Assembly (NCBI RefSeq): GCF_044704955.1
Contig: NC_091978.1
Location: forward strand, 316,076,001-316,140,000
Direction of reading: 5' to 3'
Origin: Pristiophorus japonicus
Taxonomy: Eukaryota
Length of the DNA stretch: 64,000 bases
Part shown: positions 27,021 to 43,697 of the stretch, piece after piece
How the letters are laid out: every line of letters starts with the position of its first letter
Numbering within the stretch: the stretch's first letter is position 1
The notes under the pieces: model-generated
What the model was told of the DNA's origin: nothing
Seen by the model: only the letters and a program-made list of their open reading frames with translations
The model's database searches: none
Program-made: the position numbers and the translations under genes

Positions 27021-27500
27021 CACCATCATCATAGGCAGTCCCTCGGAGTCAAGGATGACTTGCTTCCACTCTAAAAGTGAATTCTCAAGTGACTACCGTC
27101 TCTGTCAAAGGTGGGGCAGACAGTGCTTGAAGGAAAGGGTGGGTGGGGAGCCTGGGTTGATGCATGTTGCTTCCGCTGTCTATGCTTGGTTTCTGCTTCT
27201 TCTCGGTGATGGAACAAGGTGCTCAGCGCCCTCCTGGATGCTCTTCCTCCTCTTTGGGCAGTCTTGTGCCAGGAACTGGTAGGGATGTTGCACTTTGTCA
27301 AGGAGTATATGAGGCTGTCCTTGAAGCGTTTCTTCTGCCCACCTATGGCTCACTTGCCATGTCGAAGTTCCGAGTAGAACGCTTGCTTTGGGAGTCTTGT
27401 GTCAGGCATGTGGACGATGTGGCCCGCCAAATGGAACTGATCAAGCATGGTGAATGCTTCGATGTTGGGGATGCTGGCCTGAGCGAGAACACTGATGTTG
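27020..27500 (-). mobile_element. RTE-clade LINE 3' fragment
   Basis: AGHIVHMPDTRLPKQAFYSEL; (atg)n tail read as catcatcataggcagtccc. Confidence 0.85.
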
Positions 27501-30500
27501 GTGCAGGAGCAGACCATTCGGCCTTTCGAGTCTGCACCATCATTCAATAAGATCATGGCTGATCATTCACCTCAGTACCCCTTTCTTGCTTTCTTTCCAT
27601 ACCCCTTGATCCCTTTAGCCATCAGGACCATATCTAACTCCCTCTTGAATATATCTAACGAACTGGCATCAACAACTCTCTGCAGTAGAGAATTCCACAG
27701 GTTAACAACTCTGAGTGAAGGAGTTTCTCCTCATCTCAGTTCTAAATGGCTTACCCCTTATCCTTAGCCTGTGACCCTGGTTCTGGACTTCCCCAACATT
27801 GGGAACATTCTTCCTGCATCTAACCTGTCCAGTCCCGTCAGAATTTTATATGTTTCTATGAGATCCCCTTTCATTCTTCTCAACTCCAGTAAATACAGGC
27901 CCAGTCGATCCAGTCTCTCCTCATATGTCAGTCCTGCCATCCTGGGAATCAGTCTGGTGAACCTTCGCTGTATTCCCTCAATAGCAAGAACGTCCTTCCT
28001 CAGATTAGGAGATCAAAACTGAACACAATATTCCAGGTGAGGCCTCACTAAGGCCTTGTACAACGGCATTAAGACCTCCCTGCTCCTATACTCAAATCCC
28101 CTAGCTATGAAGGCCAACATACCATTTGCCTTCTTCACCGCCTGCTGTACCTGCATGCCAACTTTCAATGACTGATGTACCATGACACCCAGGTCTTGTT
28201 GCACCTCATCTTTTCCTAATCTGCCGCCATTCAGATAATATTCTGCCTTCATGTTTTTGCCACCAAAGTGTATAACCTCACATTTATCCACAAATTTACA
28301 GCATCTGCCATGCATTTGCCCACTCACCTAAACTGTCCAAGTCACCCTGCAGCCTCTTAGCATCCTCCTCACAGCTCACACCGCCATCCAGTTTAGTGTC
28401 ATCTGCAAACTTGGAGATATTACACTCAATTCCTTCATTTAAATCATTGATGTATATTGTAAATAGCTGGGGTCCCAGCACTGAGCCCTGCGGCACTCCA
28501 CTAGTCACTGCCTGCCATTCTGAGAAGGACCCGTTTATCCCAACTCTCTGCTTCCTGTCTGCCAACCAATTCTCTATCCACATCAATACATTACCCCCAA
28601 TAACATGTGCTTTAATTTTGCACACCAAACGCTTGTGCGGGACCTTGTCAAAAGCCTTTTGAAAGACCAAATACACCACATCCACTAGTTCTCCCTTGTC
28701 CACTCTACTAGTTACATCCTCAAAAAATTCTGGAAGATTTGTCAAGCATGATTTCCCTTTCATAAATCCATGCTGACTTGTACTGATCCTGTCATTGCTT
28801 TCCAAATGCGCTGCTATTTCATCTTTAATAATTGACTCCAACGTTTTCCCCACTACTGATGACAGGCTAACCAATCTATAATTCTACGTTTTCTCTCTCC
28901 CTCCTTTTTAAAAAGTGGGGTTACATTAGCTACCCTCCAGTCCATAAGAACTGATCCAGGGTCGATAGAATGTTGGAAAATGATCACCAATGCAACCACT
29001 ATTTCTAGGGCCAGTTCCTTAAGCACTCTGGGATGCAGACTATCAGGCCCTGGGGATTTATCGGCCTTCAATCCCATCAATTTCCCTAACACAATTTCCT
29101 GACTAATAAGGATTTCCTTCAGTTCCTCCTTCTCGCTAGACTCTCGGTCCCCTAGTATTTCCGGAACGTTATTTGTGCCTTCCTTCGTGAAGACAGAACC
29201 AAAGTATTTGTTCAATTGGTCTGCCATTTCTTTGTTCCCCATCATAAATTCACCTGATTCTGATTGCAAAGGACCTATGTTTGGCTTCACTAATCTTTTT
29301 CTCTTCACATATCTATAAAAGCTTTTGCAGTCAGTTTTTATGTTCCCAGCAAGATTCCTCTCATACTCTATTTTCCCCCTCCTAATTAAACCCTTTGTCC
29401 TCCTCTGTTGAATTCTAATTTTCTCCCAGTCCTCAGGGTTTGCAGCTTTTTCTGGCCAATTTATATGCCTCTTCCTTGGATTTAACACTACCCCTAATTT
29501 TCCTTATTAGCCACGGTTGAGCCACCTTCCCTGTTTTATTTTTACTCCAGACAGGGATGAACAATTGTTGAAGTTCATCCATGTGATCTTTAAATGTTTG
29601 CCATTGCCTATCCACCGTCAACCCTTTAAGTATCATTCGCCAGTCTATTCTAGCCAATTCACGTCTCATACCATCGAAGTTATTGTTATGTCTGTAAGCT
29701 TGTAATGCTTGTAGCTCCACACTGTGGGTGTGGACGTATTGTGTACTGCAGCTGCATAGTTAATCATTAAACAACAGGCAGCTTTCCGGAGAGTTCCGAG
29801 AGACCAGCCTGCCATGTTAGGAAGCTGTGTGTGCTGTGCTCTGTGAAGATATCACAATTGGTGGCGTGATGTGATATTTTTCGAATGTTTAAAGCTTAAA
29901 TTTTGTTGGTGAAGGATTCAGCCAGCCGACGGAAGACTTTGAAAGTTTTTGTCTTTGAAAAAAAACCTGCAAAATCCGAAGTAAAAAACAGCACATGGCG
30001 TGAACAGCTGGAGATTAAAAATGGCAGGTGTAATCGGATATTTGGGTGAATATAGACATGAGCGGGAACATTTTAAAGCATATGTGGATTGGCTAGAAAT
30101 GTATTTCACTGCAAATAACATAATCGAAGTTCCAGACAATGCAGTCCAGAACCAGGCTGTGTTGGAACGTAAGAAAGCGATTTTCTTATCAGTGGCAGGT
30201 CCGGCATTATACGAAACCCTTGTAAATTTGCTTGTGCCTGACGAGCCATAGGACACAATGCTTAAAGAGATTTTAATGAAGCTGGAGCAGCACTATAACC
30301 CCAAACCGTTAGAAATTGCTGAAAGCTATCGTTTCGGGATTCGGAATCAAAAGTCTGATGAAAGTATCGCTGATTACATCACAGCATTAAAAAAGCTATC
30401 GATGCATTGTAATTTTGAAAACTTTCAAAACCGAGCATTACGGGTTCGTTTTGTTTGTGGGGTGAAAAATGATGCGATCAGAAGGAAGTTATTGACGACA

Positions 30501-31677
30501 GATGACTAAACTTTTGAGATTGCTTGTCAGACAACGAGGTCAATGAGCATGGCTGAATAATATTCCCGAGAATTAAATAATGATTACGGTCATCAGTCAA
30601 CCGAGGTAAATCACCTGCAGGTTCAAAGTAAAAGACGGGCATGGCCGAAAGTCTCAGAAACTGGAAATTCTACCAGAGTGTCGAAGTCATGCTATAGGTG
30701 CCTGGGACAACACATTGCTAAAAGTTGTTCATACGTGAAGACAGAGTGTTTCTTCTGCAGAAAGACTGGGCATCTTGCGAAGGCATGCCGACTGAAGGGT
30801 AAACCAGTTTTTAAAGCTATGAGTCCAGGTTTCAAAACTATGAGTCGAAATCCAAACAGACTACATAGCACGGAAGAACAACAACAGGACGAGGAGATGT
30901 TAGAGTTACACGTCATCAGGAGCACGAGGTTAACGGACAGCGATTCGGGAAGCATCAAAATCCACATAGATGTTGCGGGATTCAAGATACCAATGGAAAT
31001 TGACACAGGTGCCTCCGTGAGTGTAATACCAGAGTCACTGTACCGCGACAAATTGCGTGATTTCCAACTGGAGAAATCCCAGATAGAGCTGCGAGGCTAC
31101 TCGGGAGGGAAAATTCCTGTAGTAGGTCATATCACCGTACCGGTGAAATATAAAGATCAATTTCAGAACTTACCTCCAATAGTAATGAAAGGAGACAAGA
31201 CTGCCTTACTAGGAAGAAATTGGTTGAGCTCACTGAAGCTGGATTGGAGTAAGGTTTTCTGTGTGGAAGCGAGATTTTCATCAATGAAAGAGGTTATCAA
31301 GCAGTATCCGAAGGTGTTCTGCGAAACAGGCAGTCCGATCCAAGGCTTCAAGGCGAGTGTCAGGGTACAGAAGGACGCTAGTACCATATGCACTCAAGGA
31401 GAAAGTAGAGCAAGAACTCAAAAGGCTAGAGACTGAGAACATTATTTGTAAGATAGATCGATGTAATTGGGCTACACCCATTGTTGTTGTACCTAAGTCT
31501 GATGGTAAAGTAAGATTGTGTGGTGATTATAAGGTAACCGTAAACCAGGTTCTAGAGGGTCAAGTCCCCAATACATTGCCGAATATAGAAGATTTGTTCA
31601 CAACACTGACAGATGGTCAGATCTTCTCAAAACTGGATCTTACGAATGCCTACTTACAGCTTGAACTAGATGAGGAA

Positions 31678-32339
31678 TGTTAGCGCGAATGTTTTCCTGG
31701 AAGAAGCACTCGACACTCTGGGTCGGTTCCAACGGCAAAACGGCCTTTATTACTCCGGCAGGGAGAGAGCCTCTGGTCCAACTCCAGGCACTCCACTCCA
31801 CCGAACAAAGAAATTCATCGATATTTATATGTTTTACAATAGTTCATTACAATTACTCAGCCCATGTCGGCTGGACATAATCCAATCATAATGATTACAA
31901 ATCGATTCCACTGGGCCAATGGAATTGGCCCCCACGCACCAGGGGACTGCGTGATCATCTCATGTTTTACCTGGGGCTTATTCATGGCCTCGTGATATTC
32001 TCCAGACCCCCTTATCTTTACTGTCCTTGGGTTCTGCTTGCGCCTAACCTCCTTATCCTTACACAGGAATTTCTTTGTTCAGTATTCTGCTGGGATATCT
32101 TGGCTGTGGTTTGTTGATTAAGGACGTTCTGCTGAGCTCGCCCTTTCCAGTGTTCCTGTACACGGAACTGCAGTGTCATCAGCTACTCAAAAATGTAGTC
32201 AAGCTAACTGTTAGCTGAATTCCCCTAGTGCTTTGCGGAATCCCTGGCAGCCATTTTATATCTGGCTACCATTTTACACATGCATACATGCATACATATA
32301 TTCAGCAAGTGCCTTTGCCTTTGAAAGTGCCCTACAACA
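31678..32339 (-). repeat. 3' LTR of the provirus (662 bp)
   Basis: Direct repeat of 37440-38086; TATA (catataaatat) at ~31821-31831 and AATAAA at 31746-31751 on the minus strand. Confidence 0.97.
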
Positions 32340-32350
32340 ATCCCCTCTTT
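32340..32350 (-). promoter_or_regulatory. Polypurine tract
   Basis: AAAGAGGGGAT immediately before the TGTTGTAGG start of the 3' LTR. Confidence 0.85.
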
Positions 32351-32544
32351 CGGTAAGGGACAAATCCTAGTCCACTTTAACCGACAACATAATTGTTACT
32401 CTATTTATATTCTTATGTACCACTCGGTACTTCCTGCCTCAACGTGCTGGCCAGTCACGTGATTTCAGAAGTCCCGGTTGCTTAGATCAAATTGATATAG
32501 TTCAGATTCCCCTGTCCCTCTGCTGGACAAGTCTCTTTATTTAC

Positions 32545-34627
32545 TCAATCCCTTGTTCTGATACTCCTTTGTCGCGCATAATGCCTGTAGGAGCGACATG
32601 CCATGACGCCCCATGTTAGTGCTAAGACCAGCTGTATCCCTACCAGTATGTGTGATATTATTCAAATCCAGGGGTGGATGTTTACGTTCATCCCCCAGTC
32701 CCAGACCCTCCTCCACCAACTCTGGTTTTGTAACTCTTGGTCAGTATCCTTCTCCAGTATTTCAATCTTTGTCTGTAGTTGGTGGTAGAGTCTGACAGAC
32801 TGGCCTACTCTGAGTCTTAGTTCCCTTAATACTTCAACTAAATGTGGGATAGGGGCCTGCTCTGGCTCGTCATAACCCTGCAGGTGATCGTGGAGCTGAT
32901 CGATGGCGTTAATGATTTTGGGCCTCGGCGTCTAACCTGGATAATGCGGGCTTGTCCTATTGTAACCGATCGTAGGGCTGTGAAGCAAAAGTTTGGTTGC
33001 GAGATCTGGCATTGTAAGCATTGTACCGATATGAATGTGCCGTGGTAAAGACACAGTATTTCCCTTTGCCCCCGTAACCTGCTCTGGCAAAATGTGTGGG
33101 GGCAGGTACTATTTCCAATACACATCCATCGGTTGGATTAAATCCACATCTGTCTAGTTCTCCCTGTCCCACCGGGTGAGGGCACACCGTAATGTCACCC
33201 GTCTGCTTGCATCCCGTCAGGGAGATCCCATAGAGTGTGTTGTCTCTGCGGATAGCAGAGGCTGCAGTCAGATAGTAATGGAGGGAGGTGTTTTCCCGTA
33301 TGATCCTGATATTCTCCAGTTGATAAAGGGGAAACGGTCCTGAGTCTTGTGTGACTATAGGTATCATCAGGGCTATTCCCACTCCGGCAGCTTTGCCCAT
33401 TAGGCAGTTTGGGATCACTGGGTATACTCTGGTTAGTCCCTTCAGAGTGCAGTTATCCAGTGTCCCCTTCAGTTTGGCCAACTGAGCCAGATGTGGGCTG
33501 TCTATCCAGTCTGGCAACTCCCCCCTTTGGATCTGATCGAGGTTGTGCCGTATCTGTCCCACCATCCATAAGCCATAAGCGTGACAGAATTGCTCCTGTC
33601 TAAGTTTTCCAGTATCTTCTCTCTCTCTCTCTCGATAAGGTGATTGATTGTTTTTGCGTGAGCTTCCAGGACCGAGATGCCATCCAATTGGATTTCGGCA
33701 CCCTCTCTTCCTAGTTCGGCTTGATCTTCCTGATTCCGCCCTGCCCATTCTAATAATCCCTTCATCACCCCTTTAAGCTGCTCCACCCTTTCATTTAGCC
33801 CTTGTATGTCCAGTGAGTTTACTATGGAGGTTCCGGCATTAAAACCGGTAGCAACATCATTAACTATTTCCCTCTGAGTCCTATGAACTGGCTCCTGTCC
33901 TCGGAATCTACTGGCACCCATGGCATCGGCAGCCTGCTGCATTATAACTTTACTTAATACATTATACATTTTTCTTGCCTGCTCTCTACAATATTCCGGC
34001 ATCTGTATACCTGAGATATTGATCAGGACAGGCACAATTTCATGCTTAACATTATCATACAATAGTTCACCCTCGTTGGACAGCCCGATCCCATTTTCCG
34101 GTCCCCTTGTAATTGTTGGACATGGCAATTCCATGGGCAGTGTGGTGGTTCTTATGGGGCGCAGTGTCGGAGGGGGTGAGAAGCATACATACAACAATAT
34201 TGCGGCAGCCTCTACCTCCTCATAGTATCCACACAGCCCCATCCCCTTTTTGTGGGTGACTAACGATTGTGGCTGGGCAGGAGGCGCGCAAATTATTCCA
34301 AAGGTACATTCATCGGGCCCCCCCGGCCTCCCTTCGTCTAATGCAACTGCTCCTTGTACCCGTGGAGCATTGCACACATACTCTATTCTTATCCGGATTC
34401 ACTTGCAGCCACGCGTTAAAATAAGTTCTGTCCTTGCTCCAGTCCTTGGCTGTCGGAATGCCTATTCAGTCAGTCAAAGTAAACAAAACCCCATAGTTCA
34501 TGTAATTTTGTCTTTCCTGCGTATGCTGTATCTCTCGTCGTCCGTCTGTATTATCCAGTGCTTGCGTGGGCCTTAAGGTTCCCAGTATCATGAGTCCCCA
34601 GAGTCGAAGTCGCCACTGCGGTCCCAC
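32545..34627 (-). pseudogene. env: Envelope / class I fusion glycoprotein (F-type), disrupted by 2 in-frame stops and ~5 frameshifts
   Basis: Signal-like N-terminus; RTQR cleavage site at 33871-33882; fusion-peptide-like EIVNDVATGFNAGTSIVNS; heptad repeat; Cys-rich domain; second heptad; Trp-rich segment; TM IISHILVGIQLVLALTWGVMAC; basic tail. Confidence 0.85.
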
Positions 34628-34754
34628 CTCGGTGAGTGTTTTATCTGCAAATTTTAAACAGATAGCCTGGTCGTCACCAGGTGTTAGGTTCTGGTCTACT
34701 TGTGTCGCGGTCACTCTGTGGAATCGGAGGCAAGGGTTAGGTTATCCATATACT

Positions 34755-34907
34755 TTATAGTCGTACCATCTCAATCACTTCATGTCCCTGTCTGGGCTGC
34801 CGTCGATTTTGCATTTGAGCTTGCTGTGCTCGAGCCTGCACGATGACCCATCTAAATATTATCCAAACTGCAATCAACACCAATGCCACCACTATTCCTC
34901 CAAACAT
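34755..34907 (-). CDS. 50-aa single-pass membrane protein, candidate accessory gene (below the ORF-track length cut-off)
   Basis: Manual translation: MFGGIVVALVLIAVWIIFRWVIVQARAQQAQMQNRRQPRQGHEVIEMVRL*. Confidence 0.5.
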   Translation of the reverse strand: MFGGIVVALVLIAVWIIFRWVIVQARAQQAQMQNRRQPRQGHEVIEMVRL

Positions 34908-36626
34908 CGCAGTCTGCTTTACTGTTAGGTTGGGTTTGTGGACTACACCTACTCACCGTGGGGTACATTGGCTCTATTGCCATAGGTGATGGTGCTATGA
35001 CTGCGCACTGCACTATTCGTCTGGTCCCATTTTTAAAAATCTCTTCCAGCCTATTTATCTTAGCTTTTAACTCTTGACCAGCTAGTTTGTTTTATTTTTA
35101 TTCTGACTACCCCACCATTTCCTCTGTCTGTCAGGTGAGTCTTCTTTATTTTATTAAGAAATTCAAATTAGTAAGGTCCAGTATAAAACAGCTGTCAATG
35201 GAAAGAGTTAACTCCTTTACAGGTTTGTAAGAAGGCCTGATGTCATTACATGACTTCGCGTAATCATCCAAATCTTTGTGCCTTCAAAACTTGCTTAGAA
35301 ATTAGGAATCCATTAAAACACCAGAAATCATTAGTAAAGTGGTCATAATAAAACTCTTCTCATCGCGAAAGACAGCATTTTAGATTAAACTCCAATTTTT
35401 TCCTTAACTTCTAATGCAAGTACTTGCCAAAGATTTATTTTTGATTTAAAACGAGACCACACATTTTTAATAGCTATTTTGTTCACTGAAATCCAATTTT
35501 CACACAAGCTGTACACATGCCAACATTTCAGGGGTTTTTTACGGTCCCGTTCATTGGGCAAATCTTGTGTTTTATTTCTCTCTCGGCACAAAATCTAAAC
35601 TTCCGTGCCAGTTCCATTTTCTATAAGAATTTTAAAATTCAGTAAGATTTTCTAATTCCCAGTTTTTTCTTTCTGTGCTGAGTTCGCATAGCTTAGATCT
35701 TTTCTCCTCGTTATTTTCAAAATGCTCCTGCTTGTTTAGACTGTGCGGGACTTTTCTTGATAAACAACGTCCATTTTGGAAATCTTTTCAAACTGCAGTG
35801 AAACTTTCTCGTAATTTAAAATCATTATCAATGTCGAGTGTCTTTTACCTCCTCCAATTTTTTTTTCCAATTAAACCAATATCTTTTTCACAGCCAATAT
35901 CAACTAGTATTTAGTAAGTTATGTCTTTTTCGATCACAAACACCTTTTTTTTAAAGAGATCAGATTTAACTTTTTGTTTTAAATGTATCGCATTTTGTTT
36001 TGCCTTTTCTTAACCAGTGGTACTTGAAACCTTCACAACAAAATTAATTCTTCACTGTTCCCATCCTAATTTCTGCTCCCCTTTTGTAGAATTTGTATTT
36101 ATTGTTGGATTACAAAATGTCAAATATGGTAATACTGTTTTTTTTAGCCAAACTTCTGTTTTAGAAGCTGATCAAAAACTCTAATCTTTTGCTCTGTAAC
36201 TTCAATTTTGTGGTACTATATCTCATAAATTACATCTTTTTTAAGCTTCAGCTTCTGACACAGTATGTGTACTTTTATTAAAAAGGCTTCCAAATCCAAG
36301 ATTTTCCAATACAACCAAAATGTTTATCAATGAGAATCACCTGAAATATCTCAAAATCCCAATTCAAATATTGTACTGCCAATCTGTTATTTAAAAATCT
36401 CTTTACTGAGCTAGAAGCTTTCGTGTCAAGGTTTTACACAAAGGAAAAATGGGAACGTACTTCTCCAGCTTGCAGCCTCGAGATACCCACACAGGCTTCT
36501 TTTTTTAAAAGGCATTACAGCTTCCCTTCTCCATTCTTTATCTCATTCCTAGACAGACATTCACAAAAGTCTCCTTTCATTCAACAAAGTTTATTGTTTA
36601 GCTGGCTCTATTCTTGGATCCATACT

Positions 36627-36902
36627 TCACTTAAGATAATCACTATTAGGTTTTTTCTCATTTCTTACATATTGATTAACTTCCTCTGTTAATTTTATGT
36701 GGGCTCGAAGAATCAAGACCACGGCTTTCTCATCTTTATCTTTCTTTTCCTTCTCCCACCGTTCCCGCTGATTTGCTGACGGGTCCTGGGGGTCCCATCC
36801 TGACTTAATCATCTTCTCAATTAGTTTCTTTTGTTTTTCTGCCAGGTGGCAGATAAGGGACCCTTCCGGTCCCCACTCGAGGTTATTTGCTTTATTGGCC
36901 AT
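36627..36902 (-). CDS. 91-aa ORF in the Gag position, probably a truncated Gag N-terminus
   Basis: First substantial ATG ORF after the PBS leader, good Kozak context (ggaATGG), charged helical sequence; no capsid or zinc-knuckle motif. Confidence 0.55.
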   Translation of the reverse strand: MANKANNLEWGPEGSLICHLAEKQKKLIEKMIKSGWDPQDPSANQRERWEKEKKDKDEKAVVLILRAHIKLTEEVNQYVRNEKKPNSDYLK

Positions 36903-37378
36903 TCCTGGATAGGACTAGAACCGTTAGGAATCTACTCACAGAGGTCCGCTTTCCACCGAGCGTAACTTGTAGTAGACCGCCTCCTGGCCTGTCAGGTCAC
37001 ATGTTCTGCTATTACACAAACTTATACAATTCTTAAAATGCGTTTAAGCAATTCCCTACGCCTCCTTAATGACTACCTACCACCGTTTTGTCTGTCGGTC
37101 CGACCCTGTTCACAGGTTTGGTTTCCGTTGGTCGCTGTGCACCGCCTGGTCTCCGGGGTATATTTTCAAATCACACTACTGGGTCTGGGAAGTGTCGCTC
37201 GGTATCACGATCCCACAGTCTAAGTGTGTTCCCTACACCTACTTAGTTCCTGGCCATCACGTGGGACAAAAGTCCTCTTAATACAGGCTCAGGCTAGGTG
37301 TTTAAGATATTAGACCGTCTCCTCGTGTCGATCAACCGGCTTCCACCTTCCACACCCTTTATAATTAAATTTTTTTAT

Positions 37379-37384
37379 ACTCAC
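37379..37384 (-). promoter_or_regulatory. Candidate major splice donor
   Basis: CGG|GTGAGT about 35 nt downstream of the PBS. Confidence 0.55.
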
Positions 37385-37419
37385 CCGGGTTTTTCCAAGG
37401 GCGTCCAGCGACTCCGGGA

Positions 37420-37438
37420 AATCCTGCCGACTATGCCA
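37420..37438 (-). promoter_or_regulatory. Primer-binding site, tRNA-Ser (AGA/TGA-type)
   Basis: TGGCATAGTCGGCAGGATT matches TGGCGTAGTCGGCAGGATT (complement of the vertebrate tRNA-Ser 3' end) at 18/19; 1 nt from the LTR. Confidence 0.9.
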
Positions 37439-37439
37439 C

Positions 37440-38086
37440 TGTTAGCGCGAATGTTTTCCTGGAAGCAGCACTCGACACTCTGGGTCGGTTCCAACGCCAA
37501 AACGGCCTTTATTACACCGGCGGGGAGAGAGCCTCTGGTCCAACTCCAGGCACTCCACTCCACCGAACAAAGAAATTCATCGATATTTATATGTTTTACA
37601 ATAGTTCATTACAATTACTCAGCTCATGTCGGCTGGACACAATCCAATCATAACGATTACAAATCGATTCCACTGGGCCAATGGAATTGGCCCCCAGGCA
37701 GCAGGGGACTGCGTGATCATCTCATGTTTTAGCTGGGGCTTATTCATGGCCTCGTGATATTCTCCAGACCCCCTTATCTTTACTGTCCTTGGGTTCTGCT
37801 TGCGCCTAACCTCCTTATCCTTACACAGTCACAGGAATTTCTTTGTTCAGTATTCTGCCAGGATATCTTGTCTGTGGTTTGTTGATTAAGGATGTTCTGC
37901 TGAGCTCGCCCTTTCCAGTGTTCCTGTACACGGAACTGCAGTGTCATCAGTTACCCTAAAATGTAGTCAAGCTAACTGTTAGCTGAATTCCTGGCAGCCA
38001 TTTTATATCTGGCTACCATTTTACACATGCATATATGCATACATATATTCAGCAGGTGCCTTTGCCTTTGAAAGTGCCCTACAACA
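37440..38086 (-). repeat. 5' LTR of the provirus (647 bp)
   Basis: ~19 substitutions plus 6-bp and 21-bp indels relative to the 3' LTR (counted by eye). Confidence 0.97.
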
Positions 38087-41000
38087 AGGAGTCCAAGTCA
38101 TGTTTGACTATAAATACTCATCTAGGCCTATATCAGTTTAAAAGGCTACCGTTTGGAGTGTCATCCGCCCCTGCCATATTCCAAGGGGTGATGAACCAGA
38201 TTTTGCAAGGTATTGAAGGGGTAGTATGTTATTTGGATGACATACTAATTTCAGGACCAAATAGGCAAATTCATAATAACATATTGAATGAAGTCCTCAA
38301 ACAGCTAGAGAAACACAGAGTACGAGTGTCTGCTCGTAAGTGTGAGTTATTTAAAAACTTAGTGGAGTACTTAGGGTACAGTGTAGACAAAGATGGTTTA
38401 CTTCCAACCATGGAAAAATTGGATGTAATTAGAAATGCAACCACTCCCAGGAATGTCACTGAACTTCGTTCATTCTTGGATCTTTTGAACTATTATGGGA
38501 AGTTCCTACCACTATTGGCTACAGTATTACATCCATTGAATGAACTTTTGAAAAAACAGGTCCAGTGGAAGTGGTCAAAAGAATGCGATACAGCATTAAG
38601 GAGTGTAAAAGCAAATTGGTAGAGAGCACCATGTTAGTTCACTACGACATATCTAAGGAGATTAAACTAGCATGTGATGCCTCTCCGTATGGAGTTGGGG
38701 CAGTAATCTCTCATGTATTAAGTAGTGGGGAGGAGAGACCAATTGCTTTTGCTTCACGCACTCTCAGTGCCAGTGAGAGAAATTATGCTCAAATTGAAAG
38801 GGAAGCTTTGGCATTAATTTTTGGGGTCAAGAAGTTTCACAAATACTTGTATGGTCGTAAATTTACCATCGTTACGGACCATAAGCCTCTAACAGCAATC
38901 CTCCATCCAAAGTCCCCAGTTCCAACATTAGCTGCAGCCCGAATGCAGAGATGGGCTTTGATTTTGTCAGCATATACATATGATATTGAATACAGACGAT
39001 CAGCTTATCACAGTAATGCTGATGCAATGTCTAGATTGCCTTCCCCATCACAAGTTACACCCGATAGGGAAGAAGTGTTTTATTTTTCATACATTGATGA
39101 ACTGCCAGTCACAGCTGAAGAGATTGGTAGAGCAACCAAACGTGACCCAGTGATGTCAAAGGTGTATGAGTATATTGCAAATGGATGGCCAAACCAGGTA
39201 ACAGACAACGATACACAACCATTCTTCATTCGTAGGAATGAATGATCAGTCGATAAAGATTGTATCATGTGGGGTGCAAGAGTGGTTATACCAAATAAAT
39301 TCAGGTCCAAATTATTCGGAGACCTCCATGACCAGCACCTGGGAATGTGCTTGACCAAGAGTTTTGCACGCAGTTATTTATGGTGGCCAGGTCTTGATAA
39401 AAATATAGAGTACATCGTGAGTCAGTGTACGACATGTCAATCGGTAAACAAGCAACCACCACCAGTACCATTACAGCCATGGAAATGGCCTCCCAGGGTG
39501 TGGCAAAGGCTACATATTGATTTTGCTGAGTTAGATGGACAACAATTGTTCATTGTAATTGATAGCCATTCAAAGTGGGTTGAGGGTTTCCAATGTGGAA
39601 AATAGCAAGTAAAACATTGGACATTTTACGAAAATAATTTTCTGCATTTGGCCTCCTTGAAGAAAATGTTTTGGATAATGGACCATAATTTCGTTCAGAA
39701 GAATTTGCACAATTCACGAGCAAAAATGGTGTGAAACATACCAAGGTTCCATCATACCACCCTGCTTCGAATGGTGCAGCAGAGCGCACTGTACAAATTG
39801 TAAAACGTGCCCTCATAAAACAAATGTTAGATCCAAATCCAAGAAAACGACAGTTGTCATTGGATCACAAATTGGCTAATTTTTTGATTACATATCGTAA
39901 TACTCCTCATACAACTACTGGTAGAACACCAGCAGAGTTGTTTCTCAAATGACAGCCACAAACCAGATTCTCGTTGTTGAAGCCAAATTTGGCACAGTCT
40001 GTAGAAGAGACACAATTAAGACAAAAAGAGAATCTTGATAAAGGGAGAGTAAAAGAGAGAAGTGTGAAATTAAACCAGAAGGTGAGAGTGAGGAACTATC
40101 ACCATAAATGGTTAAAGTGATTACCCGGAAGAGTGGTAAAGATATGTGGTCCTCGCACATATTTGGTCAAGATGTTTGATAATGAACAGGTGAGGTTTGT
40201 CCATATTGATCATATTTTACCTACAGACATGGAAGGAGTTGAAGGTGGGAATGATTCAATTATTTCTGACTTTTCAGATAGTTTTGATATACCAGTAGCA
40301 AATCCTAAATCCAATGTACTGGAAACAAATCCAGGAGAGAATCAGAATGAAAGTCTGAGTCCGAGTCAGGAAAACAAAGAGCCTGAAGTTAGAGGGAGTG
40401 CAAATGAAAATCAAGGAAATTCCATGGAGGAAAATGTTCCTCAGGATGAGCCTCAAATGAGTGTGAAATCAACACCATGTTTGGAAGGTTCTATTCGAGA
40501 GCGAAGGTGTCCTCTTCAAAACAGAAAACAAGTGGTAAAGTTAAATTTGTAAATATGTATAAAAATGAAAGTTATTTATGATGTTTGTTATGATGGATTT
40601 TTCATTAAGGAGGGAGAAGTGTAATGTCTGTAAGCTTGTAATGTTTGTAGCTCCACACTGTGGATGTGGACGTATTGTGTACTGCAGCTGCATAGTTAAT
40701 CATGAAACAACAGGCAGCTTTCCGGAGAGTTCCGAGAGACCAGCCTGCCATGTTAGGAAGCTGTGTGTGCTGTGCTCTATGAAGATATCACAGTTATCTT
40801 TCCTTAAGTTCAAGTAACCCTAGTCTCTGAATTAACACTGTCACTCTCCATCTTAATAAAGAATTCTACCATATTATGGTCACTCTTCCCCAAGGGGCCT
40901 TGCACAACGAGATTGCTAATTAGTCCTTTCTCATTACACATCACCCAGTCTCGGATGGCCAGCCCTCTAGTTGGTTCCTCGACATATTGGTCTAGAAAAC

Positions 41001-41093
41001 CATCCCTAATACACTCCAGGAAATCCTCCTCCACCGTATTGCTACCAGTTTCGTTAGCCCAATCTATATGTAGATTAAAGTCACCCATGATAA

Positions 41094-43697
41094 ACATAGA
41101 AACATAGAAATATAGAAATTAGGTGCAGGAGCAGGTCATTCGGCCCTTCGAGCCTGCACCGCCATTCAATAAGATCATGGCTGATCATTCAACTTCAATA
41201 CCCCTTTCCTGCTTTCTCTCCATACCCCTTGATCGCTTTGGCCGTAAGGGCCATATCTAACTCCCTTTTGAATATATCTAACGAACTGGCCTCAACAACT
41301 CTTTGCGGTAGGGAATTCCACAAGTTAACCACTCTATGAGTGAAGACATTCCTCCTCATCTCGGTCCTAAATGGCTTACCCCTTATTCTTAGACTGTGAC
41401 CCCAGTTCTGGAACTCCCCAGCAATGGGAACATTCTTCCTGCCTCGAATCTGTCAATCCCGTCAGAATTTTATGTTTCTATGAGATCCCCTCTCATTCTT
41501 CTAAAATCCAGTGGATACAAGCCCAGTTGATCCAGTCTCTCCTTATATGTCAGCCCTGCCATCCCGGGAATGAGTCTGGTGAACCTTCGCTGTACTTCTT
41601 CAATAGCAAGAACGCCCTTCCTCAGATTAGGAGACCAAAACTGAAAACAACATTCCAGGGTGTGGCCTCACCAAGGCTCTGTACAACTAGAGTAAGACCT
41701 CCCTGCTCCTATACTCAAGTCCTCTAGCTATGAAGGCCAACATGCCATTTGCCTTCTTCACCGCTTGCTGTACCTGCTTGACAACCTTCAATGACTGATG
41801 TACCATGACACCCAGGTCTCGTTGCACCTCCCCTTTCCCTAATCTGTCACCATTAAGATAATATTCTGTCTTCCTGTTTTTGCCACCATAGTGGATAACC
41901 TCACATTTATCCACATTATACTGCATCTACCATGCATTTGCCCACTCACCTAACCTGTCCAAGTCACCCTGCAGCCTCTTAGCATCCTCCTCACAGCTCA
42001 CACCGCCACCCAGCTTAGTGTCATCTGCAAACTTGGAGATATTACATTCAATTCCTTCATCTAAGTCATTGATGTATATTGTAAATAGCTGGGATCCCAG
42101 CACTGAACCTTGCAGCACCCCACTGGTCACTGCCTGCCATTCTGAAAAGGACCCGTTTATTCCCGACTCTCTGCTTCCTGTCTGCCAACCAGTTCTCTAT
42201 CCACGTCAATACATTACTCCCAATACCATGTGCTTTAATTTTGCACACTATTCTCTTGTGTGGGACCTTGTCAAAAGCCTTTTAAAATCCAGATAACCAC
42301 ATCCACTGGTTCTCCCTTGTCCACTCTACCAGTTACATCCTCAAAAATTTCTAGAAGATTTGTCAAGCATGATTTCCCTTTCATAAATCTATGCTGACTT
42401 AGACTGATCCTGTCACTGCTTTCCAAATGCGCTGCTATTTCATCTTTAATAAGTGATTCCAACATTTTCCTCACACCGATGTCAGGCTAACCGGTTTATA
42501 ATTCCCTGTTGTCTCTCTCCCTCCTTTTTTAAAAAGTGGTGTTACATTCACTACCCTTCAGTCCATTGGAACTGATCCAGAGTCAATAGAATGTTGGAAA
42601 ATGATCACCAATGCATCCAATATTTCTAGGGCCACTTCCTTAAGTACTCTGGGATGCAGCCTATCAGGCCCTTGGGATTTATCGGCCCTCAATCCCATCA
42701 ATTTCCCGAACACAATTTCCTGACTAATAAGGATTTCCTTCAGTTCTTCTTTTTCGCTCGACCCTCGAACCGCTAGTATTTCCGGAAGGTTATTTGTGTC
42801 TTTCTTAGTGAAGACAGATCCAAAGTATTTGTTCAATTGGTCTGCCATTTCTTTATTCCCCATTATAAATTCATCTGATTCTGACTGCAAGGGACCTACA
42901 TTAGTCTTCACTAATCTTTTTATCTTCACATATCTATAGAAGCTTTTCCAGTCAGTTTTTATGTTCCCTGCAAGCTTCCTCTCATACGCTATCTTCCCCC
43001 TCCTAATTAGACCCTTTGTCCTCCTCTGCTGAATTCTAAATTTCTCACAGTCCTCAGGTTTGCTGCTTTTTCTGGCGAATGTATATGCCTCTTCCTTGGA
43101 TTTACCACTATCCCTAATTTCCCTTGTTAGCCACGGTTGAGCCACCTTCCCCGTTTTATTTTTACTCCAGACAGGGATGTACAATTGTTGAAGTTCATCC
43201 ATGTAATCTATAAATGTCTGCCATTGCCTATCCACTCTCAACCCTTTAAGTATCATTTGCCAGTCTATCCTAGCCAATTCACGTCTCATACCATAGAAGT
43301 TACCTTTCCTTAAGTCCTGCACCCTAGTCTCTGAATTAACACTGTCACTCTCCATCTTAATAAAGAATTCTACCATATAATGGTCACTCTTCCCCAAGGG
43401 GCCTCGCACAACAAGATTGCTAATTAGTCCTTTCTCATTACACATCACCCAGTCTAGGATGGCCAGCTCTCTAGTTGGCTCTCAACATATTGGTCTAGAA
43501 AGCCATCCCTAATCCACTCGAGGAAATGCTCCTCCACCGCATTGCTACCAGTTTGGTTGGCCCAATCAATATGTAGATTAAAGTCACCCATGATAACTGC
43601 TGTATCCTTATTGTACGCATCCCTAATTTCCTGTTTGATGCCATCCCCAATCTCCCTACTACTGTTTGGTGGTCTGTACACAACTTCCACTAACACA
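41094..43697 (-). mobile_element. Second CR1 LINE, 5'-truncated, decayed
   Basis: Tail aacatagaaacatag at 41094; VVYRPP, IMGDFN, SDH, FADD. Confidence 0.93.

Follow-up and report, generated by a model that had tools for sequence, protein, structure and literature searches.

The locus raises two questions: which class of fusion protein is encoded by the broken envelope (env) gene on its minus strand, and what kind of element carries that gene. The window, as used here, is the whole 64,000-nucleotide stretch of Pristiophorus japonicus DNA that was analysed. The initial annotation had read the env frames as a class I fusion protein resembling the F proteins of paramyxoviruses and baculoviruses rather than a gamma/beta-type Env. 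It gave no carrier element for env, underestimated the length and damage of the gene, and omitted the F-type retroviral envelopes that are already known from lokiretroviruses and foamy viruses. The reading preferred here, with a probability of roughly 85%, is that the window copy is a dead, non-autonomous member of a shark endogenous retrovirus (ERV) family whose Env is an F-type (class Ib) fusogen.

The env remnant and its lesions

The env gene starts near 34630, about 480 nt further upstream than the start near 34150 proposed earlier, and all of its parts lie on the minus strand. The additional 5' part (34140..34630), which encodes a putative signal peptide, ~130 aa of Cys-rich domain and a Pro/Thr-rich linker, is interrupted by a stop near 34468 and by a frame change near 34320. 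It is followed by the F2-like N-terminal subunit of the fusion core (33883..34140), recognized from a homologue match and marked by structural matches that begin at model residue 174, and by the cleavage-site position (33871..33882). The putative fusion peptide and the long heptad helix (HRA, 33560..33870; helix 277-366 of the structural model) are disrupted by a frame change in a GA run near 33630. The Cys-rich beta domains, which resemble F domains I/II (32925..33560), are modeled at residues 350-560 with a pLDDT of mostly 70-95 and have frame changes near 33020 and 32920. The last part (32482..32925) holds the second heptad (HRB), a Trp-rich membrane-proximal stretch, the transmembrane helix and a basic tail, with stops at 32664 and 32547. 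The peptides quoted in the initial annotation were all found in minus-strand frames at the place given for them.

Both main window frames align to a natural protein of 714 aa from the shark Mustelus (P0001) with 56% identity (E 1e-88 and 1e-64); therefore, the frames are not a product of chance. Relative to a natural open frame of the family there are seven breaks, namely the frame changes at ~34320, ~33630, ~33020 and ~32920 and the stops at ~34468, ~32664 and ~32547. The lesions reported earlier at the GA run, ~33020 and ~32920 and the stop at 32664 were recovered, but the break given at 32690 was not, and a second stop at 32547 and another near 34468 had been overlooked. A position downstream of the GA run was also considered for the first of these breaks and rejected, as comparison with sibling loci puts the break at the run itself. 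Six of the 11 closest siblings carry the ~32920 break with an identical border, which suggests that the env of the integrated template was already broken; recurrent slippage is a possible alternative.

The window copy retains a minimal basic motif at the cleavage position. A canonical furin-type motif occurs there in 15 of 20 sibling loci, and also in P0001, so the minimal motif is best read as decay. The peptide after the cleavage site is weakly hydrophobic (19-residue mean <=0.6), and the model has low pLDDT at residues 238-299.

Several siblings keep frames of ~500-540 aa that end before the transmembrane helix, and siblings share a break ahead of the second heptad, as might be expected if a domesticated gene made a truncated, secreted Env, for example a receptor-blocking restriction factor. 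In the window copy, however, four more breaks lie upstream of the second-heptad break, the longest frame is 298 codons, and the copy sits within another decayed retrotransposon. Domestication is thus a highly improbable explanation, and the window locus is a non-coding fossil.

Fold of the Env protein

The structure was predicted for the natural, whole Mustelus homologue P0001 (45-row alignment) and not for the window copy. Since natural open-frame relatives exist, reconstruction of an ancestor is unnecessary for the structural question. The model has a mean pLDDT of 64.8 and a pTM of 0.44, with most of the core at 70-95. It contains helices at 277-366 (HRA) and 596-633 (HRB) with strands between them, and a transmembrane helix at 652-699; the two heptads are thus spaced by beta-rich domains and followed by a transmembrane helix, as in F proteins, where such domains take up ~250-300 residues. 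The distance of over 300 aa claimed between the heptads agrees with the 328 residues counted in a natural open copy from where the first heptad begins up to the second. The TM-side subunit is ~460 residues long, as compared with the short TM subunit of gamma-type Env. Neither the CKS-17 immunosuppressive domain (ISD) nor a CX6CC motif, both said earlier to be missing, gave any match in the three window frames and P0001.

Foldseek, which the initial annotation had suggested running and which was applied here to the single-chain model of the natural homologue, returned only paramyxovirus and pneumovirus F proteins among the PDB matches listed (best E 4e-10; whole-chain TM-score ~0.3). A second structural search over 48,161 chains placed ten F proteins at the top (Z 8.2-11.2), followed by two foamy-virus Env chains (Z 8.0 and 7.7). 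The best match was hMPV F, with a Z of 11.2 over 278 residues (rmsd 6.9 A) and model residues 174-569 covered. The structural matches start at model residue 174, which in 4 of the top 5 rows is paired with F residue 25-38, and the predicted P0001 model has the three-domain core of F proteins with the N-terminal subunit contributing to it. The initial annotation had named a better match to orthoretroviral TM proteins as one result that would speak against it; no gamma-type TM chain is among the 50 structural matches listed, although weaker ones may exist.

Long coiled coils can by themselves produce structural matches, and the protein might then be an unrelated or gamma/beta-type Env. Helical bundles do reach Z 6.5-7.5 against the model, and the TM-scores of the F matches are low. 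The best helical look-alike has a Z of 7.5, HIV gp41 has 6.5 over 103 helical residues, and such matches cover ~60-150 residues, whereas the F matches extend over model residues 174-569, beta domains included, with ~280 residues aligned at 6-7 A rmsd. A sequence-profile search of the PDB listed foamy-virus Env first (E 0.006, marginal), and this match falls in the beta region rather than in the helices. Together with the missing CX6CC and ISD, these results leave an F likeness due to coiled coils alone with very little probability.

In Pfam scans, no window frame and no family member matched Fusion_gly or Baculo_F, apart from a single sub-threshold Baculo_F match (E 0.0011) in a chimeric relative that is distant from the window copy. 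When the PDB was searched with single sequences or close profiles, no significant match was obtained. Neighbours in a protein language-model search (Atlas) carry Fusion_gly or Baculo_F, with a recognition value below the level typical of known families, and are weak evidence. The fold search, the foamy-virus Env profile match and, weakly, the language-model neighbours support the interpretation of the window Env as F-type rather than gamma/beta-type, in agreement with the original proposal.

Among predicted viral structures, the Env model matched those of a lispivirus, baculovirus F and walleye epsilonretrovirus Env. The BFVD matches A4GTG3, Q9WHI8 and A0A2P1GML9 comprise walleye epsilonretrovirus Env (E 7e-11 and 1e-10; low TM-scores) and a glycoprotein named for a fish filovirus. 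These model-to-model matches suggest that F-type folds may occur in further fish viruses.

The N-terminal Cys-rich domain has no fold match (model pLDDT 50; best Z 4.2; no Foldseek match with E <= 0.001), and an Atlas search with it gave no usable match.

Structure of the provirus

The broken env is carried by an LTR-flanked provirus of 6.4 kb on the minus strand (31678-38086). Its 5' LTR (37440..38086, minus strand) is 647 bp long and bounded by TG...CA, and its 3' LTR (31678..32339, minus strand) is 662 bp long. The primer-binding site (37421..37438, minus strand) is complementary at 17 of 18 nt to the 3' ends of this genome's own tRNA-Ser(AGA) genes, and a polypurine tract (32341..32352, minus strand) lies before the 3' LTR. 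The 5-bp target-site duplication at 31673..31677 matches its partner at 38087-38091 in 4 of 5 positions. The two LTRs differ by 19 substitutions over 640 aligned sites (K2P 0.030). Under the two substitution rates used in the available part of PMC4422223 (2.2e-9 and 2.2e-10 per site per year) this corresponds to an integration age of ~7 to 70 million years; therefore, the age is poorly bounded.

The provirus retains only the first 88 codons of gag (36651..36914, minus strand), with 76% identity to the start of a natural open gag frame, and no match to pol was found in it. Most of gag and the whole of pol are replaced by an AT-rich non-coding segment (35080..36540; GC 0.33-0.38), which is common to the pol-less siblings, is absent from L021, L024, L027, L043-L047 and L049, and had no match in Rfam. 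A search of the own genome with this segment gave 2994 candidates, 40 of which were scored. One locus (L048) has a related AT-rich segment in place of gag only, and its LTRs are identical over the part fetched. The remnant of a small ORF with a single membrane helix, located between pol and env in the family, lies at 34755..34950 (minus strand); it is 51% identical to the same ORF in L024, and the frame is open in L044 and L046.

The provirus was inserted into the reverse transcriptase (RT) of a Ty3/gypsy element on the plus strand (30561..40552), of which protease, RT, RNase H and integrase can be recognized. Two LINE-like copies (RT/endonuclease-type by appearance), which are ~90% identical to each other, flank the region at 27500-29860 and 40620-43600 of the window, and several decayed gypsy elements also occur around them.

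Family copies and homologues

When one env frame was used to search the own genome (5.9 Gb), 15,846 candidates were obtained, of which at least 150 were scored as matches; this is a lower bound and not a copy number. Twenty sibling loci were fetched with their flanks; 17 are without pol, two have nearly all of it and one has a part. When RT was used as the query, 22 of 150 scored matches lay in frames that run for 1000 aa or more without a stop. Eight loci from this RT search were fetched, chosen mostly for long pol frames and therefore not a random sample: four have open gag, pol and env, in a fifth gag and pol are open and env contains a single stop, and three are broken or distant. The search for intact paralogues proposed earlier thus yielded intact-looking relatives in four of eight cases. 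The LTRs of the four open loci are 99.6-100% identical over the part fetched. A young subfamily (L043-L047) is ~76% identical to the window copy in env DNA, and the three young relatives checked have perfect 5-bp target duplications and different flanks. The shark family has been mobile very recently.

The family layout is LTR, primer-binding site for tRNA-Ser, gag with two CCHC knuckles, an in-frame TGA, pol (protease, RT, tether, RNase H and integrase), the small membrane ORF, env of ~707 residues, and LTR. The in-frame TGA at the gag-pol junction was present in all four loci examined.

Eight loci (L018, L019, L022, L023 and L028-L031) adjoin a ~68-bp tandem satellite on few contigs and have flanks in common. 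Because of these shared flanks, part of the copy number is attributed to segmental duplication rather than new integration. One contig of the same genome (C23) also contains long tandem arrays of tRNA-Ser-like 3' ends with ~1.95-kb spacing; the pattern has 1150 matches genome-wide.

Outside this genome, the homologues from a word-based database search with Env were all from sharks (7 of 7). An Env profile search of 1.84 billion proteins gave 50 matches; the ten looked up comprised five from sharks, three from frogs and two unnamed, and snakehead retrovirus (SnRV) was not among these ten. Distant full-length homologues from the bamboo shark and frogs (P0033, P0046, P0049 and P0058) have a different N-terminal module, which is possibly Ig-like (UniRef name; V-set E 0.045). 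One frog homologue cluster has 16 members, mostly of 677 aa.

Retroviral lineage

The RT core of the family carries the motifs LPQGFHNSP and LQYVDD, and Pfam recognizes both RT_RNaseH and RNase_H, i.e. the dual RNase H (tether plus RNase H) that is common to all retroviruses. The family RT is 42.6% identical to a record that matches the printed SnRV sequence (P0096, used as the SnRV anchor in the trees), 39.8% to MLV and 36.5% to simian foamy virus. Two trees were computed, a 48-row RT tree with rows chosen from the collected matches and a 24-row RT-RNase H tree, neither of which includes loki, ERV-L or fish foamy-like references. In both, the family falls outside the gamma/epsilon-type clade (95/98), and its supported sister group consists of fish ERVs (98/95). 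A sister relation to SnRV has no support in either tree; the term SnRV-grade therefore denotes placement by exclusion and motif and not a supported clade. A scan of viral contigs with the family RT gave no match.

Membership of the lokiretroviruses was the first guess, and the family would be their first representative from cartilaginous fish. The available part of PMC7947760 describes an F-like loki Env with an RXKR site and a loki pol with dual RNase H, and the printed Loki-Xtr Env has, by eye, the same motif order as the shark family Env. However, all 22 loki RT rows in the supplement of that paper, as far as it was available, have PFG, while the shark family, SnRV and MLV have LPQG, and none of the collected proteins contained the loki RT motif patterns. 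The loki Env also appears by eye to be without the extra N-terminal domain. The guess was rejected on the RT motifs, and a lokiretroviral origin is very unlikely, in a comparison made by RT motif alone.

A foamy-like ERV of sharks might account for the foamy Env being the best PDB profile match, and foamy RTs are among the top PDB matches for the family RT, level with MLV. Foamy viruses, however, have a Gag without CCHC knuckles and make Pol separately from Gag, while the family Gag has two such knuckles and a single in-frame stop precedes pol. Simian foamy Pol is the least similar of 23 rows over RT-RNase H (27%). Between its F2-like part and its cleavage site, where the foamy receptor-binding domain sits according to the accessible part of PMC11468914, the shark Env contains no large insert. 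A foamy affiliation is therefore given scarcely any probability. The family is assigned here to a non-loki, non-foamy lineage of fish retroviruses, with an F-type Env and recently integrated members.

Proposed mechanism

By analogy with F proteins and foamy-virus Env, the precursor of the shark Env would be cut by furin, and the N-terminal subunit would remain part of the folded core after cleavage. On triggering, the first heptad would extend and put the post-cleavage peptide into the target membrane, and the second heptad would then zip back to form a six-helix bundle. Since there is no separate attachment gene, the N-terminal Cys-rich domain on its Pro/Thr stalk is likely a built-in receptor-binding module; class Ib proteins have been reported to carry modular inserts for receptor binding (PMC11468914). 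The window copy would have been integrated by family integrase that intact helpers provided in trans. Its template probably had a broken env already, and the copy has decayed since. The pol-less subfamily would likewise have spread by complementation in trans.

Implications

The literature considered included PMC12583693, PMC11521997, PMC10435555, PMC12193657, PMC13709493 and bioRxiv 2023.10.26.564294 and 2024.03.17.585361, each in the part available. No paper on an F-type Env in SnRV-like or shark ERVs was found in this scope, which took in few subscription papers and not Repbase, and an earlier printed account may therefore exist. The shark and frog Env homologues are annotated as 'uncharacterized protein'. 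Annotation based on Pfam does not see envelopes of this kind, and ERV screens that rely on env will therefore overlook them.

Four scenarios for the origin of retroviral Env are left open in the accessible text of the loki paper (PMC7947760), and in that of the foamy structure paper (PMC11468914) orthoretroviral Env is given a class of its own (Ia). The shark family, with homologues in frogs, would add a third and independent retroviral lineage with an F-type Env, which lends weight to the view that this type is ancestral or was repeatedly exchanged among aquatic retroviruses. This question becomes testable with RT-versus-Env trees. One tentative scenario, more doubtful than probable, is that the F-type (class Ib) Env is ancestral and was kept in loki, foamy and the SnRV-grade shark/frog lineage as well as in fish orthoretroviruses, the last of which depends on the walleye epsilonretrovirus Env matches of the predicted model. 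The N-terminal attachment module would have been swapped (Cys-rich here, Ig-like in relatives), the mammalian gamma/beta Env would be a derived replacement, and the shark family would be a still-mobile representative.

Comparison with known systems

The lokiretroviruses of Wang and Han have a published F-like Env, and none of six chondrichthyan genomes was positive for them in the available part of that paper (PMC7947760). As described there, the loki Env resembles the shark Env in its signal peptide, RXKR site, coiled coil, transmembrane helix and similarity to paramyxovirus and pneumovirus F. The shark family differs in its RT motifs, which are not lokiretroviral, in the N-terminal Cys-rich domain added to Env, and in its host group.

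The foamy-virus Env is a class Ib, F-like protein (PDB 8RM0/8RM1) according to the part of PMC11468914 available. It has in common with the shark Env the F-like three-domain core and a weak profile match in the beta domain. The putative attachment module is N-terminal to the core in the shark Env, whereas in the foamy Env it is inserted before the cleavage site. The shark family further differs in having a Gag with CCHC knuckles and a gag and pol joined by an in-frame stop.

SnRV-like ERVs include lineage I CmiERV of the elephant shark (PMC4422223) and clade Huo (PMC6001957 and PMC4977317), as far as the accessible parts of these papers describe them. SnRV and clade Huo resemble the shark family in RT and RNase H motifs, the gag-pol in-frame stop and a small accessory ORF. 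The in-frame stop makes the layout compatible with gag-pol stop-codon readthrough as in SnRV-like viruses. The gag-pol stop of SnRV is UAG, and that of other fish retroviruses is UGA, in the available part of PMC13517186. Unlike SnRV, the shark family has UGA at this position, no 3' ORF after env and a short Env tail.

The F proteins of paramyxoviruses and pneumoviruses and of baculoviruses and errantiviruses are the best structural matches of the predicted shark Env. Identity to them is 9-14%, and the shark Env differs from both groups in that it is encoded by a retrovirus and has its own extra N-terminal domain.
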